From IMG/VR virus record IMGVR_UViG_2703718841_000001: a stretch of 16,747 nt of DNA. One strand, written 5' to 3'. The translations under genes and the position numbers were made by a program. The stretch's first letter is position 1; each line of letters opens with the position of its first letter. A model generated the notes under the pieces. The model had not been told where the DNA came from and did not search any database. It saw only the letters and a list, made by a program, of their open reading frames with translations. Below, in pieces: positions 1,659 through 10,658 of this stretch. The DNA is from a virus (lineage: Duplodnaviria > Heunggongvirae > Uroviricota > Caudoviricetes).

Positions 1659-4130
1659 TTAAGAATCAGCCTGACTCGGGATCAGTTTTTGCCAGATAAC
1701 TGAAACGTATTTTGCCTGGTAACGGGCGTCATCAAGTGCATTATGGCGCTCACCTTCGAATGGAATAGCCGTTCTGGCATCGAAGTCTATGGCTTTCCCC
1801 AGCTCAACGATTGTGCGTACATCGCGATCGTTGTAGTAACGCCACGGGCAGGGGATCCCCTGCCGTTCGTATGAACGGCGCAAAATCGTGTTGTCGAAGT
1901 TGGCTCCATTTCCCCAAACCTGAACAAAAAATTCACCGGAGTTTTCGTCGATAAATTCTCGCAATTGTAACAGTGCATCATCTAACGGGATTTCATCGGT
2001 CATAATGGCAGATTGCGCTTCGCGTGATTGCTTAAGCCACCATTTAATGGTGTCCCGATCAATGACTCCGCCAGCAGTTTCCAGATCGATAGTCTTACTA
2101 AATTCCGGTCCCATATCTCCGGTTTGCGGATCGAAAAATATTGCACCTATTGAGATGATCGGGGCATCAGGATTTTTTCCCATGGTTTCAAGGTCGATCA
2201 TTAGATGGTCACACGTCCTGCTGGTGGATGTGATTTCGTGATGACCGTTCACCTTAATTGGGTGATCTGCCGTCTCGCCAGTTTCATTATCGCTATTGTG
2301 ATGCTGATTGCCGCCAGTGTTCTCCTTGTGTGGATGTTCAGCGCCTTCCATTTCCTCCGGATCATCTTCCTGAACTTCAACCTGATACTCTTCATCGAAT
2401 GTTTCTTGGTATGTTGCGTCGCCCATCACCGCGCCACAATCAGGGCAGTTGCCGCCGCCGGTCTGACCGCAGGCGGTGCAGACTTTTTCCACTTCCTGTT
2501 GCGCTACTGGTTCAGGCTGTTTCGTTTCTGGCTCGTTTTGTAACGCATTTGGACTGTTTTGTTCCGCTTTTTGGTAGTTCCGTTCCGATTCATGCTGGTT
2601 CTGGTTCACAGAATCGCGGGTCTGGAGCCCCTTAACCCATTTCGGATCATTCGGGTCACTAATCCCTTCAACAAATTCACCACGTGATGCAGCAAGCAAC
2701 TTATCGGCGTCAGGCTGGCTGATATTGGCTGCCTGCATAATTTTGTTTACTTCGTCAGCGGTAACTTTTATCGGCTCTGGTTGTTCTGAATCTTCAGCGG
2801 TATCTACATTTTGCGGTAAGCCCGTGTATGTGCCATTTTTTCGGGCAAAATATTCTTCTTTTGTGATTTCAGTGGCGCCAGCAGCCAGTGCCTTATCCAG
2901 ACCAGAGAGTTTGTTTGCGCGACCGTATTTTTCTCCGTCCTTATCTGCGAAGAGGAAATAGAACGGCCTCTCACGCTCTACAGATGGTTCAGCTTCCGGC
3001 GCGGTTTCATTTTTTGGGATATCAGATACCTCAGTTTCCACTGCATCAGTTTGTGTTTCTGATGACTGGAGAACATCAACAGTGCCCAGGTCTGTTTCTT
3101 CATTCTCAAACACGCCCTTTGTCGTCAGGTATTCGCAGATATATTTGTTCAGTGCTACGGGATCTTTGTGAATGTCGATCGGACGCTCACGGACAAGGCC
3201 AAAAATAGTTTGGCGGTCGTAGCGAAGGGCATCAGGCTGTTTGCGCATTGATGCCGAGATACGCTTCCAGTCTTCGCGGTCGTTGTCGATAACTTCTTTT
3301 TTTGCCCAGCGATGGATGCTGCCGTCAATGTTTCCGGCATCCACATCACTAGGCCAGAGAGCGTAGGCCAGTTCGTCATCCAGTGTTTTCCATGTCTGCT
3401 TGTATTCGCGATGAATGGCAGCAATGACCGGGCTGATTTTTCCTGTTGAATTTTCAGTGTACTGTTGATTGGCTCTGGCGCGGGCGAGATCAACAACAGA
3501 CGTGTATTTTCCGGTTTCCTTGCGTTCACCTTCGCGACGTTTTTTCCAGATGCGCATCTCTGCCTGAATTTCGGGCCATTTAGCACCAGGAATACATTTA
3601 TGCTTAACCCACCCAATGGCGTGCAACTTAAGCTCCGGATACATGGCGTTAACTTCTGGCATTTTCATCAACGCTTCAACGATATGTCCGTCGAATGTTG
3701 CCATGTCTTCCTGCAACAATTCCTGTGCGCTAATAACCATATCAACGGTGATGTTTTCACATGTGTCGAACTTAACCATGACAGCGTTCTGTACTTCAGG
3801 GGCCAGCTTGTCAAAAGTGACGTTCATCGGATCGGATTCAGTCTCAACCGGGACAAAAGAAGCAGACTCCTCATCCCAGCGGTTTTCCTGCATATATTCA
3901 GCATCCCATGAATCGAGGGCAGGGCGGGGTATGCCAGGTTTATCCTCGCAGACAATAAATTTATAAGCGCAGTCCTGAGCAGCCGGATAATGTTCCAGGA
4001 ATTGCCAGTGAAATTTTGCTCGAGCACGGCGTTCGTCGCCAGCTTCAATGGCTGTGGCTACAGCCACAGCGCCTTCTTCCCTTGTTGCCAGTTCGTCAGG
4101 AATAGCGGCGCAAATAAAGACTTTACTCAT
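1659..4130 (-). CDS. Large exonuclease-like protein with C-terminal DEDDh 3'-5' exonuclease domain
   Basis: Long ORF (track 1659..4166). Preferred start is ATG at 4130 (MSKVFICAA…) with GAGG about 10 nt upstream. C-terminal ~185 aa carries DEDDh motifs: [30 protein letters not shown]. Centre is acidic and low-complexity with a CxxC…CxxC zinc ribbon ([16 protein letters not shown]). Confidence 0.8.
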
Positions 4131-4222
4131 TTGTTTTAACCTCATGACAGATTTAAGGATGAACAAATCCCTGCCATTGCTGGCATATAAGAATGAAACC
4201 GGATATTTATTACGGAACTGTT

Positions 4223-4414
4223 TTAAAGACCTGCCGGGATTTCGATATTATCCTGGTGAATAACTTTATCGACCGGGTAACAGTTACCGGGAATTTTCTG
4301 TTCGGTTGCTGCAGTCATACACTCCTGCATTGTCCTGTGAACACTGACTGCAATATCAACTGGCTCTCCGGAAACAAGAAAAACTGTCAGAACAAGCACA
4401 AATGCTGAATTCAT
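4223..4414 (-). CDS. Small signal-peptide (exported) hypothetical protein
   Basis: Preferred start ATG at 4414 ([18 protein letters not shown]…) with AAGGA 9 nt upstream. N-terminal hydrophobic signal-like segment; two Cys in the mature part. 63 aa. Confidence 0.5.
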
Positions 4415-4566
4415 TGTGCACATCCTTTTGGCATCAGACGTAAACGAGCCAGCATTGAAACAATGCATATTTTATTTAATAGCTCCCGTTCTTGTTTTCT
4501 CTTGTTAATGGCATCTTCAGTAAATACTGGGTTAACTGGACTGCCTGGGCCAATGACGTGCGCACA

Positions 4567-4782
4567 ATGCGGATGCTGGATGGCAGAAGCCACAGACAAA
4601 TTTGCGAAATGTTTGGTCGGGTTCAGCGAGATCCATTCTGGGTAAAAAACATCATGAGCCCGTCAAAGCTCCGCGAAAAATGGGACGAACTGGTCATCCG
4701 CCTGGGACGTTCACCTGTACAGCGTTGTGTTAATCATATTTCTGAACCGGATACAGAAATTCCGCCTGGTTTCAGAGGATAA
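4567..4782 (+). CDS. Hypothetical protein (start uncertain)
   Basis: Track ORF 4492..4782 starts at TTG; first in-frame ATG is 4567 (MRMLDGRSHRQICEMFG…). No convincing SD. Overlaps a second frame (4463..4645), so a frameshifted remnant is possible. Confidence 0.3.
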   Translation: MRMLDGRSHRQICEMFGRVQRDPFWVKNIMSPSKLREKWDELVIRLGRSPVQRCVNHISEPDTEIPPGFRG

Positions 4783-4822
4783 GTGTTGATTTCAGGTCAT
4801 GAGGTAATTTTAAGGGGGACTT

Positions 4823-5245
4823 GTGGCAAAAGTTTTTACACAAGAAGAGCGGGAAAAAATTAAATGGCAGGTGGTGGAACTCGTGCGCCAGAGCGGCCGT
4901 GAGACGTTACGGCAACTGGAAGCTAAAACAGGTGCGACTAGATATCTGATGAGCGTTCTTGCCAGAGAGCTGGTAGCCAGTGGCGATGTATACAACTCCG
5001 GCTACGGGTTATTCCCCTCTGAACAGGCGCGTAAGGACTGGCAAAACGCCCGCAAAAAACTCTCGAGGGCAAAGGTGAAGAAACCTGCTGTGGTTGATCC
5101 GGACCTTATCTGGTCATCACCTGACGGAGAAATACGTCGCTACGACAGTCGCCTAAACATAATCTGTCGCGAGTGCCGGAAGAGCGAAGTTATGCAGCGC
5201 ATACTGGCTTTCTATCAGGGTAATTTTCAGGACGTGGCGCAGTGA
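4823..5245 (+). CDS. Hypothetical protein, possible winged-helix DNA-binding protein
   Basis: 140-codon ORF with GTG start and GGGGG SD about 4 nt upstream. Its stop TGA (5243-5245) overlaps the GTG start (5242) of the methyltransferase frame, indicating translational coupling. HTH-like segment RETLRQLEAKTGATRYLMSVLARELV. Confidence 0.6.
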   Translation: MAKVFTQEEREKIKWQVVELVRQSGRETLRQLEAKTGATRYLMSVLARELVASGDVYNSGYGLFPSEQARKDWQNARKKLSRAKVKKPAVVDPDLIWSSPDGEIRRYDSRLNIICRECRKSEVMQRILAFYQGNFQDVAQ

Positions 5246-5688
5246 GTGCACCGGCAACCATTCTTGATATGTGCTGTGGCAGCCGCATGTTCTGGTTCGA
5301 TAAGTCTGACGAACGGGCGATATTCAGCGATATCAGAAAAGAAGGATACACATTACGCAATGGGAGACGCTTGATTATCAGCCCTGACATTATCGCAGAT
5401 TTTCGTGCATTATCATTTGCAGACGCATCTTTTTCGATGGTTGTATTAGACCCTCCGCATCTTGAGAGTGTTGGTGATAACGCCTGGATGGGAAAGAAAT
5501 ATGGACGGCTGAATAAAGATGCCTGGCGTGATGATTCGCGACAGAGATTTAAAGAAGCCTTTCGGGTGTTGAGGCCGCACGGCGTTCTGATTTTTTAATG
5601 GAATGAAACGCAAATACCGGTAAGCCAGATTCTGGCACTGACAGACAGAAAACCTGTTATCTGTCAACGAACAGGGAAAAAACGATAA
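5242..5688 (+). pseudogene. SAM-dependent DNA methyltransferase, apparently interrupted by an in-frame TAA
   Basis: N-terminal 118 codons (5242..5598) carry LDMCCGSRMFWFDK and VVLDPPHL (DPPY-like) motifs. Frame stops at TAA 5596-5598 after …RPHGVLIF, yet the same frame reads on coherently (WNETQIPVSQILALTDRKPVICQRTGKKR) to TAA at 5686-5688. Confidence 0.55.
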
Positions 5689-6750
5689 AACCCACTGGAT
5701 TATTTTTATGAAAGAGGCATCCAGTGAGTAGATTCGTAAGGCTACAGATACGTATATCTGAATAATTAAATTCAGTTCTGTAAATAAAATTTAATCCTTA
5801 ACCGGATGGATTTCTGCACCCTCAGAACATCAGGAGGCCGCCCGAAAGGGCGGTAGTGAAATGCGAAAGTTCAAAATTATTATTGAAACGGGAATAGCTG
5901 GTGGAGATTTTGAGGATGTATTCGAAGTGGACGATGACGCAACACCTGAGGAAATTCATGACGGAGCATAAGAAATTTTCTTTAACTACTGCAATTACTC
6001 ATACCACGAAATAAAAGACGATGAGGAAGAACAAAGTGGCTGATTTTTGTTCAGCTAAATATAACATCAGTTTTGAAGAGCGGGATGAACTATTAATGGA
6101 CTATGGTGAGTTACGCGGTGGAAGTGCTGCTGATGTCGAATCCTAGCGTGATGACTATGAAGCGGGAAAAACTCCGGTCGAAGCATATTGTGATGAGTGG
6201 GGCGATGAATGAGCGAGATTAATTATCAGGAAGGGCATGAAACGGCGGGGCAAGCAAAACCAGTGGCATGGCGATATCGCTACGTGAAAAAAGGCGTTAC
6301 GGACTTTCAGGGGAAGTAGTGGTCTGGTGACTGGAAATATGTACCGAAAAAAGAGGATTGTAACGACAGGCCGAACTATCAAATTCAGGCCTTATTCACT
6401 GCCTCACCAGTCCCAGTTACATCAGAAGAACTGGTTAAAGCTGTGCACTTTTATGAACAACTAAAACGCGAAAATCCACCAACATCCGGCAACTAGATTA
6501 ATGGATTAACTATGTCGGTTAAACGACCAGCCAACTGAAAAAGCGGAAACCTGATTACAGGTTGCCAGATAAGGCAATGAGCTACCTGGCGCGGAACGGA
6601 CTGATAAGTATGGGGAATGTTTTACGATGAACCTTTAGACTAAAGAGTTTGTAACGCTATGTAAGTGATTTTTTCTGGTTTAGATATTTATATGTCCGGC
6701 CAAATTGAGGTGTGTTTAAATGTAATTGCACATTGATTGTAGGAGGAATA

Positions 6751-6930
6751 ATGAAAAACGCATTGCAGTTTTTGTTTGTTGCGTTCTGGTTGTTCGCATC
6801 ATGTATGCCCATCATCTTCACAGCAAGGTATATGGAAAAAGTTGATGTTTTGATATTAATATTTGGATATATAAATGCCCTTTTTTTAGGGGTGTTCATG
6901 GCGGTCATGTGCATTGAATACTGGCGGTAA
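6751..6930 (+). CDS. Small hydrophobic membrane protein (59 aa, two predicted TM helices)
   Basis: ATG at 6751 preceded by consensus SD AGGAGG (6741-6746). Product MKNALQFLFVAFWLFASCMPIIF…VLILIFGYINALFLGVFMAVMCIEYWR. AT-rich with rare codons, suggesting foreign origin. Track ORF 6712..6930 uses an upstream alternative start. Confidence 0.5.
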   Translation: MKNALQFLFVAFWLFASCMPIIFTARYMEKVDVLILIFGYINALFLGVFMAVMCIEYWR

Positions 6931-7020
6931 ATACAGCGAACTCCATTGGTTTAGTTGGATATTTACTGTACTGGACAAAAACGGTTTGCGGGGAAATCTT
7001 AGTTAAGTAGAATGACTGCG

Positions 7021-7190
7021 GGTGCTTGAGGCTATCTGCCTCGGGCATGGACACCAACGGCAGATAGAGAAAAGCCCCAGTTAACATTACGCGTCCTGCA
7101 AGACGCTTAACATTAATCTGAGGCCAATTTCATGCTAGACACATGTAGGTTAGCCTCTTACGTGCCGAAAGGCACGGAGAAGCAGGCTAT
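7021..7190 (+). other. hok/sok-type (type I toxin-antitoxin) leader remnant lacking the hok ORF
   Basis: 15-mer GGAGAAGCAGGCTAT at 7176-7190 is identical to 10490-10504, the SD/start region of hokD in this window. Upstream has hok-leader-like hairpins (7032-7040 with 7059-7067; GAAA-loop hairpin 7161-7176) and a mok-like frame from ATG 7132 to TAA 7207-7209. No Hok-like ORF follows. Confidence 0.5.
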
Positions 7191-8700
7191 TGTTAACACC
7201 AAGCTGTAATGTCCCCTTTGAACCATTCTAAAATGTCCCCAGACAATTCTCTGGGGGATTTTTCATGATCAAAGAGACTGTTACGATGAGTCATAAGGAA
7301 CTCCACCGACTTCAGATTATTCAGGAACAAGCTGCGGCACGCATTGGCATTTCTATTCGGCAGGTTAAACGTCTGGTGCAACGGTATAGAAATGAAGGGC
7401 CTTCTGGTCTGGTTTCCCACCGACGTGGAAAGCGTCCTAATAATTCCTTTTCTACTGAATTCAGAGCAACAGTAATTTCACTCCTCAAAGGCCGTTACGC
7501 TGATTTTGGACCTACGTTTGCGTGCGAAAAATTGCGCGAGATACACGGTTTATCTTTATCCGTTGAAACTCTCAGAAAGTGGATGATAGAAGAGGGGTTA
7601 TGGCGTGAACGCCGTCGTAAAATTGCCCGTATATATCAACGCCGCATGCGACGACCATCTTACGGTGAACTGATCCAGATTGATGGCTCACCTCATGACT
7701 GGTTTGAAAATCGAGGCCCCAGATGTACACTGATCGTTTTCATTGATGATGCCACCAGTGCGTTGATGGCGTTGCGTTTTGTGCCTGCTGAAACAACCCG
7801 GGCTTACATGGAAACCCTCCGGGGTTACCTTAATGATCATGGCGTACCGCTCGCTCTCTACTCTGATAGACACAGTATATTCAGGGTAAATAACCCAGAG
7901 CGGGAAGGTGAGCTGACCCAGTTCACTCGTGCGATAAAGACACTGGGCATCGAGCCAATCCATGCCAACAGCCCGCAGGCAAAAGGGCGGGTAGAGCGCG
8001 CCAATCAGACACTACAGGACAGGCTGGTCAAAGAAATGCGGCTTCAGAATATCAGTGATATTGAAACAGCAAATGCATGGTTGCCGACCTTTATTGAAGC
8101 CTATAACAACCGGTTCGCTACGTCGCCTCGTACTACTGATAATGCTCATCTTGATGTGCACCATTCTGAAGAGGAACTGGGTTATATCTTCAGCCTACAG
8201 GCGAAGCGCGTTCTGTCTAAAAATCTCACTTTCCAGTACAAAAGCAGTGCGTTTCAGGTACGCAGTGAGGGCCGGGGATATCGACTTAGGCATTCGGTTG
8301 TTACTGTATGCGAGAACTTTGACGGTGAAATTAACGTTCTGTATGACGGGAAAGCGCTGGGCTGGGAAAAGTATGTTGATGGCCCGGAGCCTATACCACT
8401 GGATGATGAAAAGAGTGTCCATGAACGAGTGGATAATGCCCGTATTGATTTACGCTCAAAATACTATGTTAAACCTAAAGCTGACCATCCCTGGCTTACG
8501 CGCCGAACGCAAAGTCATCAGCAAGTTAAGCCCCCGAAGTTACCTAAAAAGAAGCCTGATCCCGATAAAAAAGATTGAAACCAAGATCGATTCGGTTGAG
8601 TGCATATCCATTCATAGGGTAGATTCTTAAGTCGCGTTTCTGGTGTTCATTTTCGGGTGGTTTGTTACTTGTTTTACCGGGGATATGCCAGAAACGCGCT
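7191..8700 (+). mobile_element. Insertion sequence carrying the transposase (ends not resolved; coordinates approximate)
   Basis: Left boundary placed at the point where the hok leader homology breaks (7190/7191). Right boundary is a guess; no clean terminal inverted repeats or target-site duplication could be found by eye. Confidence 0.3.
7265..8578 (+). CDS. DDE transposase with N-terminal HTH and integrase-core (rve) domain
   Basis: 437-codon ORF. N-terminal HTH (ARIGISIRQVKRLVQRY), rve-like core (IQIDGSPHDWFE…LYSDRHSIF…QAKGRVERANQTLQ), basic C-terminal tail. Family not resolved (IS481-like or ISNCY/IS1202-like). GGGGGA SD lies in a hairpin just upstream. Confidence 0.85.
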   Translation: MIKETVTMSHKELHRLQIIQEQAAARIGISIRQVKRLVQRYRNEGPSGLVSHRRGKRPNNSFSTEFRATVISLLKGRYADFGPTFACEKLREIHGLSLSVETLRKWMIEEGLWRERRRKIARIYQRRMRRPSYGELIQIDGSPHDWFENRGPRCTLIVFIDDATSALMALRFVPAETTRAYMETLRGYLNDHGVPLALYSDRHSIFRVNNPEREGELTQFTRAIKTLGIEPIHANSPQAKGRVERANQTLQDRLVKEMRLQNISDIETANAWLPTFIEAYNNRFATSPRTTDNAHLDVHHSEEELGYIFSLQAKRVLSKNLTFQYKSSAFQVRSEGRGYRLRHSVVTVCENFDGEINVLYDGKALGWEKYVDGPEPIPLDDEKSVHERVDNARIDLRSKYYVKPKADHPWLTRRTQSHQQVKPPKLPKKKPDPDKKD

Positions 8701-9904: not shown

Positions 9905-10144
9905 ATGGGTAGCATTAACCTGCGTATTGACGATGAACTTAAAGCGCGTTCTTACGCCGCGCTTGAAAAAATGGGTGTAACTCCTTCTGAAGCGCTTCGT
10001 CTCATGCTCGAGTATATCGCTGACAATGAACGCTTGCCGTTCAAACAGACACTCCTGAGTGATGAAGATGCTGAACTTGTGGAGATAGTGAAAGAACGGC
10101 TTCGTAATCCTAAGCCAGTACGTGTGACGCTGGATGAACTCTGA
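9905..10144 (+). CDS. relB: RelB antitoxin (type II TA)
   Basis: 79-codon ORF, MGSINLRIDDELKARSYAALEKMGVTPSEALRLMLEYI…; stop overlaps relE start (TGATG). Confidence 0.92.
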   Translation: MGSINLRIDDELKARSYAALEKMGVTPSEALRLMLEYIADNERLPFKQTLLSDEDAELVEIVKERLRNPKPVRVTLDEL

Positions 10145-10431
10145 TGGCGTATTTTCTGGATTTTGACGAGCGGGCACTAAAGGAATGGCGAAAGCTGGGC
10201 TCGACGGTACGTGAACAGTTGAAAAAGAAGCTGGTTGAAGTACTTGAGTCACCCCGGATTGAAGCAAACAAGCTCCGTGGTATGCCTGATTGTTACAAGA
10301 TTAAGCTCCGGTCTTCAGGCTATCGCCTTGTATACCAGGTTATAGACGAGAAAGTTGTCGTTTTCGTGATTTCTGTTGGGAAAAGAGAACGCTCGGAAGT
10401 ATATAGCGAGGCGGTCAAACGCATTCTCTGA
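10144..10431 (+). CDS. relE: RelE toxin (ribosome-dependent mRNA interferase, type II TA)
   Basis: 95-codon ORF, MAYFLDFDERALKEWRKLGSTVREQLKKKL…; overlaps relB stop by 1 nt. Confidence 0.92.
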   Translation: MAYFLDFDERALKEWRKLGSTVREQLKKKLVEVLESPRIEANKLRGMPDCYKIKLRSSGYRLVYQVIDEKVVVFVISVGKRERSEVYSEAVKRIL

Positions 10432-10502
10432 ACCAAAGCATGACATCTCTGTTTCGCACCGAAGGTGACACTTCTGCTTTGCGTTGACAGGAGAAGCAGG
10501 CT

Positions 10503-10658
10503 ATGAAGCAGCAAAAGGCGATGTTAATCGCCCTGATCGTCATCTGTTTAACCGTCATAGTGACGGCACTGGTAACGAGGAAAGACCTCTGCGAGGTACG
10601 AATCCGAACCGGCCAGACGGAGGTCGCTGTCTTCACAGCTTACGAACCTGAGGAGTAA
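10503..10658 (+). CDS. hokD: Hok-family type I toxin (HokD/RelF)
   Basis: Found by direct reading; below the ORF-track length cutoff. ATG 10503, product MKQQKAMLIALIVICLTVIVTALVTRKDLCEVRIRTGQTEVAVFTAYEPEE (51 aa), stop 10656-10658. GGAGAAG SD upstream. Confidence 0.85.
   Translation: MKQQKAMLIALIVICLTVIVTALVTRKDLCEVRIRTGQTEVAVFTAYEPEE

Follow-up and report, generated by a model that had tools for sequence, protein, structure and literature searches.

A small phage methyltransferase gene lies dead behind an intact DUF977 gene in a Qin/Kim-like prophage of Escherichia coli, and I consider this a case of ordinary gene decay, in which the overlap between the two reading frames is mere packing, with a probability of about 0.9. 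The window (the whole stretch of 16,747 nucleotides that was analysed, IMG/VR virus record IMGVR_UViG_2703718841_000001) carries both genes on its plus strand, as it does the other mapped parts of this locus. On this reading the locus corresponds to the post-replication part of the early-right operon of a cryptic lambdoid E. coli prophage, and what put the methyltransferase of this lineage out of action is the replacement of the AAA codon of Lys119 by TAA together with a 1-base insertion; a weaker ribosome-binding site and two replacements at highly conserved positions come on top. The remaining 118-aa product would lose the last two strands of its Rossmann-like sheet and with them its activity, and a 3.25-kb deletion nearby has removed the immunity region and presumably also the promoter driving these genes.

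The two genes are joined by a GTGA start/stop overlap (5242..5245), in which the TGA of the 140-aa DUF977 frame (5243-5245) sits on the GTG start codon of the methyltransferase (5242-5244), just as the first-pass annotation had read it, and the SAM-binding and DPPH motifs that it had named are found as motif I, ILDMCCGS (residues 7-14), and motif IV, DPPH (residues 70-73). The 5' part of the pseudogene (5242..5598) comprises 118 codons followed by a premature TAA (5596..5598) that comes right after GVLIF, and past this codon the frame stays open for 29 codons (WNETQIPV...GKKR) to a TAA at 5686-5688, also in line with the earlier reading. Alignments with homologues place an invariant Lys119 (AAA) at the nonsense codon, and when the DNA is aligned with that of two intact copies from E. 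coli (loci L014 and L017) and of the O157:H7 copy, the change comes down to T in place of A at 5596 (TTTTTAAA to TTTTTTAA), so the mutation of a lysine codon that had been proposed is borne out.

It had also been proposed that this one point mutation would explain the broken gene, and here the account has to be extended, since the window copy carries further lesions. Within the GGGAAAAAA run at 5674..5682 there is a 1-base insertion, GG to GGG, where all three homologues in the DNA alignment have one base fewer; the extra G (at 5674-5676, 26 codons past the Lys119 stop and inside a run of G and A) produces the +1 frameshift that leads to the stop at 5686-5688. The continuation of the methyltransferase frame past the premature TAA (WNETQIPVSQILALTDRKPVICQRT, 5599..5673) is homologous to the family, and the ancestral C-terminal coding segment follows it in the shifted frame (GKNDKTHWIIFMKEASSE, 5675..5731), ending with the original stop, TAG, at 5729-5731. 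Deleting the extra G restores NDKTHWIIFMKEASSE and this TAG, and the resulting 162-aa product can be aligned over its whole length with P0001 and P0002, intact homologues of likewise 162 aa each, at 88% and 86% identity. Because the insertion shifts the frame, the gene remnant is to be taken as 5242-5731 and not as 5242-5688. In addition, the Shine-Dalgarno sequence of the methyltransferase (5230..5234) is weakened to GGACG, compared with GGAGG in L014, L017 and the O157 copy, and the protein has the replacements F69L and G102R at two positions that 90% or more of 55 diverse family members conserve.

The sequence beyond the premature stop is, by its alignment to the family, homologous methyltransferase sequence and no chance open frame. 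Reading the TAA as Lys gives a protein whose match to phrog_954, "DNA methyltransferase", extends to residue 147 with E=4.7e-73, and a search with this reconstruction returned 6,694 homologues at E<=1e-5, the best 120 of which are mostly 156-178 aa in length, with others of up to 279 aa and many of about 248 aa that bear a C-terminal extension. All of the aligned homologues read F-K-W-N-E-T-Q over the window TAA, a stretch that is invariant in the close homologues, and all end in ...QRTGK(N/S/G/A)DKTHWIIF(V/M)K plus a few residues. The 55 diverse members share an invariant set composed of D30, R32, P48, D70-P71-P72-H73, E105, R108, K119, W120 and P138, and at least 90% of them keep L8, D9, C12 and G13 of the glycine-containing motif I, which lies at the end of strand 1. 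The intact copies have dN/dS values of 0.10-0.13 and, as these substitution patterns indicate, are under purifying selection; the pseudogene lineage itself offers only 3 synonymous and 3 non-synonymous substitutions, a number that gives its dN/dS no statistical power. Set against intact and selected homologues, the window copy with its premature stop and frameshift thus reads as a pseudogene, and the decaying methyltransferase of the first-pass annotation becomes a pseudogene in a decaying prophage. Independent losses of the same gene number at least three among the prophages and phages of E. coli: through K119 to stop plus the frameshift in the window lineage, through W95 to stop in an O157:H7 prophage, and, in phage HannyBb and strain TUM17668, through a truncation that leaves about 62 codons.

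The gene upstream is intact (4823..5245, 140 aa from a GTG start) and is also called LygF or "Ren-like". Its protein is identical to WP_001151262.1, matches DUF977 (PF06163) over residues 1-136 of 140 (E=5.1e-29, 101.5 bits against a cut-off of 22.1), and matches phrog_142, "Ren-like exclusion protein", at E=1.6e-47; against NCBIfam there was no model near the cut-off, and against PDB sequences there were chance matches only. An AlphaFold model, built from a shallow alignment, is confident for residues 1-83 (pLDDT >90) and of low confidence for the C-terminal half, and its N-terminal part consists of helices at 7-24, 29-36 and 40-53, a hairpin at about 57-64 and a long helix. The best Foldseek matches to this model are weak (E 0.02-0.08) and are mostly regulators of the MarR, GntR and IclR types or O-methyltransferases, whose N-terminal domain is in my reading of the winged-helix type, together with a few other weak matches such as riboflavin kinase. 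Since these matches are weak but come mostly from regulators or from proteins taken to have a winged-helix-type domain, the winged helix assigned to this protein at the outset is a reasonable description of what is probably such a fold. A published survey likewise gives YdaW a MarR-type domain (PMC9308461).

What does not carry over from that early description is the dedicated partnership of a DNA-binding protein with a methyltransferase, and the anti-restriction or epigenetic role suggested for it would be conjecture. Spelled out, DUF977 and the methyltransferase would form a two-component module, caught here while decaying, with the winged-helix protein targeting DNA for the enzyme in trans. 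Such a module would make sense of an enzyme in whose conserved core (about 155 aa, catalytic fold only) no target-recognition domain is found, and other E. coli prophages (L014, L015 and L017) do contain both genes intact and adjoining, with the same 4-nt overlap. In Salmonella and Klebsiella prophages, too, the methyltransferase shares an operon with DUF977, which precedes it by a few genes; however, in Salmonella two other genes, DUF4406 and DUF4752, separate the pair, and in the Klebsiella-type prophages a 248-aa version lies several genes 3' of DUF977, directly before a 654-aa C5-type methylase. Moreover, a 4-nt overlap with the upstream gene was seen at 13 of the 18 loci examined, and the upstream genes themselves vary, including DUF2737, DUF4752, DUF977 and proteins of 194, 205 and 98 aa without a Pfam match; in all, the 4-nt overlap recurs with at least four kinds of upstream gene other than DUF977. 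The near-identical P0004 (83%) belongs to the PL-side operon of P22-like prophages, where it sits, again with 4-nt overlaps, between DUF2737 or unnamed proteins and Ead/Ea22, with no DUF977 gene within 4 kb on either side, and P0002 is also found behind an Ead_Ea22 gene. Since the same methyltransferase occurs behind such varied genes, the overlap is best regarded as ordinary operon packing, and a GGAGG of its own, 7-8 nt ahead of the GTG, makes independent initiation possible in each intact homologue.

The distribution of the two genes tells against a module as well. About 4,079 E. coli records match a 981-base query, only 397 of them cover both genes, and the partial matches listed for this query cover the DUF977 half, so that most DUF977 genes would seem to have no methyltransferase adjoining them. 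As many as 254 phage records, from phages of Streptococcus, Vibrio, Acinetobacter, Listeria, Gordonia and others, contain relatives of the methyltransferase that are about 50% identical to it, whereas the best 120 relatives of DUF977 all come from E. coli, Shigella or Salmonella. I therefore regard the dedicated module as unlikely, with only a small share of belief left to it; judged by its genomic neighbourhoods, the methyltransferase is a mobile accessory gene and not one half of a fixed pair.

Could the 118-aa frame instead be a functional short protein under selection, for example a SAM-binding or regulatory fragment? The identical 118-aa protein does occur in hundreds of genomes, where it is called intact by PGAP, and RefSeq lists it in most of them as an ordinary protein, WP_001310834.1. 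Its uniformity, however, can be put down to the vertical inheritance of one cryptic prophage, and the structural prediction is unfavourable to a fragment of this length. The AlphaFold model of intact P0001 (pLDDT 94.8) is a stripped-down Rossmann-like fold with few helices and with strands at 7-11, 26-30, 64-70, 110-121, 138-144 and 150-156, the last three of which lie across or past the truncation point. The window ORF, ended at residue 118, stops inside strand 110-121 and falls short of a complete seven-stranded sheet; it is without K119, W120, P138 and the last two strands, and one helix is lost in addition, so the 118-aa product is presumably inactive. Also speaking against such a function, every aligned homologue that reaches codon 119 reads on; the TAA strikes an invariant Lys-Trp pair; the stump lineage carries F69L, G102R and the weak Shine-Dalgarno sequence as well; and there are further pseudogenes in the neighbourhood of the stump. 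A selected short protein is in my opinion very improbable, and a dead gene in a decaying prophage accounts for the truncated frame far better.

Both lesions are real alleles and essentially fixed on this haplotype. Of the 5,426 complete genomes of E. coli searched, about 473 contain an exact copy of the 61-mer that has the TAA at its Lys119 position; its AAA version has no full-length exact match among those genomes, and the best full-length hits to it are the TAA carriers with one mismatch. The 61-mer with the frameshift (GGG) is found exactly in 376 genomes and the GG version in a single one, VE-V11-M, which still encodes the 118-aa stump, having the TAA without the extra G. This genome suggests that the TAA arose before the frameshift, provided that this single case is no homopolymer sequencing error. 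The decayed allele is thus already known, being present in hundreds of E. coli genomes and annotated as a pseudogene in some RefSeq entries, such as that of strain 23CRST009, where PGAP labels the methyltransferase gene "frameshifted; internal stop". P0123, a cluster representative of 118 aa, has 88% identity to the first 118 residues of P0001 and is probably the same stump.

Two further explanations would let the gene live on, and both have next to nothing left in their favour. Programmed recoding, with readthrough of the stop plus a -1 or +1 shift, would yield the full-length enzyme and could draw on the slippery-looking G3A6 run that holds the frameshift, but it would take two separate events, and the intact homologues have neither the stop nor the frameshift feature, so recoding is no conserved design. 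A TAA followed by T, as here, is furthermore the context in which E. coli terminates translation most efficiently, which counts against readthrough. That the TAA is a sequencing or assembly error might be entertained from its position at the border of a T run, but it is refuted by the exact recurrence of this codon in some 473 independently assembled complete genomes and one deposited phage record, with the AAA version absent on the haplotype among the genomes searched.

The setting of the locus is a decaying prophage. The window matches E. coli PSJ-12 at 100% identity and, apart from the deletion, ATCC 8739 at 99.9%; it is a Qin/Kim-like cryptic lambdoid prophage. Its genes are, in order, int, xis, an exonuclease gene, ydfD, a dicB fragment, an O-like gene fragment, DUF977 and the methyltransferase stump; next come a DUF7167 pseudogene, a frameshifted hypothetical gene and a transposase fragment; and after these ydfW, flxA, ydfV, relBE, hokD, rem, ydfU, ydfT, cspF/B, essD and rrrQ. 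A scan of 4100-6100 found 5 promoter-like sites, close to the 3.3 of shuffled sequences, and 9 terminator-like sites, more than the 2.0 of the shuffles; I read nothing further into these counts.

A BLAST comparison with ATCC 8739 places the absent 3.25 kb at L001 2502-5753 and the corresponding junction in the window at 4533/4534. Its two ends lie within dicB and within the O-like gene, and ydfC/B/A, dicA, dicC and a ydaT-like gene are lost between them. What is left of the O-like replication initiator gene is a 3' fragment of 83 codons that starts at the deletion junction (4534..4782), aligns with positions 211-298 of the 298 in phrog_391, "replication initiation O-like", and is described by PGAP as "partial, missing N-terminus". 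The deletion presumably also took the rightward early promoter for DUF977 and the methyltransferase, and transcription of the two genes would then have been lost with it.

As for what the intact enzymes do, conserved motifs and the predicted fold together indicate a family of minimal amino-methyltransferases of the SAM-dependent class I, and their DPPH, placed behind motif I, suggests that they methylate nucleic-acid bases at an exocyclic amino group. PADLOC assigns intact P0001 to MTase_II (PDLC03288, E=2.4e-71) and oMTase (PDLC03730, E=1.3e-47), and the DNA-methyltransferase names of the PADLOC and PHROG profiles should be read as predictions. In Pfam nothing scored above the cut-off for the methyltransferase (Methyltransf_11 reached 20.5 of the 21.2 bits needed and N6_N4_Mtase gave E=0.055), in NCBIfam there was no model near the cut-off, and among PDB sequences there was no match at E<=1. 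Foldseek with the P0001 model retrieved Trm11, Bud23, assorted small-molecule methyltransferases and M.TaqI, at TM 0.5-0.6 and E of about 1e-5 to 4e-4, and the BFVD fold search returned one unnamed close relative and otherwise generic methyltransferase folds. In the literature I could find no experimental work on this family; what came to light was the mention of YdaW as a predicted MarR-type factor and, on the orphan methyltransferases of prophages, general statements only.

It is possible, if on the whole rather doubtful, that the intact family is not a conventional site-specific DNA methyltransferase, and that its members would methylate independently of sequence, act on RNA or another non-DNA substrate, or borrow their specificity from a partner such as DUF977. 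This thought takes its start from the lack of a recognition domain, of a Pfam family of its own and of a solved structure, combined with about 50% identity across the phages of distant hosts. If it were true, the repeated loss of the gene from the cryptic prophages of E. coli would mean that its function is needed in lytic growth only. The locus itself is of little weight, being another decayed gene in a well-known defective prophage, and its practical lesson is that the RefSeq treatment of the stump, intact in most genomes and a pseudogene in others, could be harmonised. The intact family is another matter, for it is widespread and strongly conserved in temperate phages of distant hosts, and would make a reasonable target for biochemistry.

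How the window compares with known systems can be told from its closest relatives outwards and back. P0001 and P0002 ("class I SAM-dependent methyltransferase"; PHROG 954) share with the window the N-terminus, the GTGA overlap with DUF977, DPPH and FKWNETQ, at 86-88% identity over the reconstruction, and they are uninterrupted, in contrast to the window copy with its K119 to stop, its +1 frameshift, F69L, G102R and GGACG. At the level of fold, archaeal Trm11 (tRNA m2G10) and M.TaqI (DNA N6-adenine, gamma class) have in common with the family the class I fold, with motif I near the N-terminus and DPPx after strand 4, but identity is just 15-19% at TM 0.5-0.6, and the phage family is without a THUMP or target-recognition domain and misses several helices. 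YfdM from prophage CPS-53 of E. coli K-12 was considered as a homologue, being a truncated "putative methyltransferase" in a similar order of O-like fragment, small protein and methyltransferase; it was rejected, as its translation is a Dam-type fragment that ends in NPPY and has no similarity to the family, and because YfdM is unrelated, the preprint on YfdM and phage SW1 has no bearing here. The Qin (Kim) prophage is the system to which the window belongs most closely. ATCC 8739 keeps the 5' part of dicB, ydfC/B/A, dicA, dicC, the ydaT-like gene and the 5' part of the O-like gene, all of which the window, being of the PSJ-12 type, is without; the gene order is otherwise the same, from int-xis-exonuclease through the DUF977-methyltransferase stump to relBE-hokD-rem-ydfU-ydfT, and over 4780-5760 the DNA of ATCC 8739, PSJ-12 and "Escherichia phage PhiR42_1" from ECOR13 is 100% identical to the window, both lesions included.

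The intact methyltransferase family to which the prophage protein P0001 belongs, represented here by loci L008-L025 and by phage matches H98-H137, consists of a core of approximately 155 amino acids in which there is no recognition domain, and comparison with Pfam returned no family above threshold, while a sequence search of the PDB returned no match. The E. coli prophage copies share approximately 50% identity with proteins from phages of Streptococcus, Listeria, Enterococcus and Staphylococcus and also with those from Vibrio, Acinetobacter, Gordonia and Bacteroides phages, and this conservation is unusually strong for a phage accessory gene of predicted function. Within Klebsiella/Citrobacter-type prophages (L022-L025), the protein is a 248-amino-acid variant with a C-terminal extension of about 90 residues, always followed directly, with a 4-nt overlap, by a 654-amino-acid protein that has a weak match to the C5 DNA_methylase family; together the two may form a two-methylase cassette.

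The 118-amino-acid stump that remains of this gene in the window (5242-5598) is labeled inconsistently between strains in RefSeq: the entries for PSJ-12, ATCC 8739, VE-V11-M and others give it as an intact "class I SAM-dependent methyltransferase" (WP_001310834.1), whereas that for strain 23CRST009 lists it as a pseudogene ("frameshifted; internal stop"). Two rare variants of this Qin allele were also observed, P0006 from an ENA metagenome contig and NZ_AP027978.1 (L027); one has GAA (Glu) rather than TAA at codon 119 and retains the frameshift, while the other has the TAA and lacks the extra G, and each may represent an intermediate or a revertant, or may result from a sequencing error. Inactivation has also occurred separately in E. 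coli O157:H7 SS NE 1040-1 (L005, 2503-2976), where an 88% identical copy, located in a different prophage context downstream of yfdR and a gene for a 116-amino-acid protein, is interrupted at W95 (TGG to TAG) and, near its 3' end, carries TAG in place of GAG as the codon after Met-Lys.

Further downstream, the window contains a series of additional decayed genes (5861-8308). DUF7167 is interrupted by an internal stop (5861-6043), a hypothetical gene carries a frameshift (6209-6630) and an ISNCY transposase is truncated (7286-8308), as would fit a general erosion of that part of the prophage. Between an AGGAGG and the ATG at 5861 with which the DUF7167 pseudogene begins sits a hairpin that has a perfect 6-bp stem and a GAAA loop (CCGCCC-GAAA-GGGCGG; 5838-5853, within 5832-5863), which is kept with small changes in the O157 copy.

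Upstream, in region 4411-4782, BLAST comparison with ATCC 8739 revealed a 3.25-kb deletion with its junction at 4533/4534, fusing the 3' portion of dicB, on the minus strand, to that of an O-like replication gene, on the plus strand, and removing the dicF region, ydfC, ydfB, ydfA, dicA, dicC and a ydaT-like gene, which is the loss of the entire Qin immunity/division-inhibition switch. Microhomology at the junction is suggested by a 6-base overlap (4533-4538) between the two BLAST segments. Downstream, the toxin-antitoxin genes relB-relE and hokD (9905-10658) are intact, and in having these genes well preserved among pseudogenes, the window resembles the Qin prophage of K-12.
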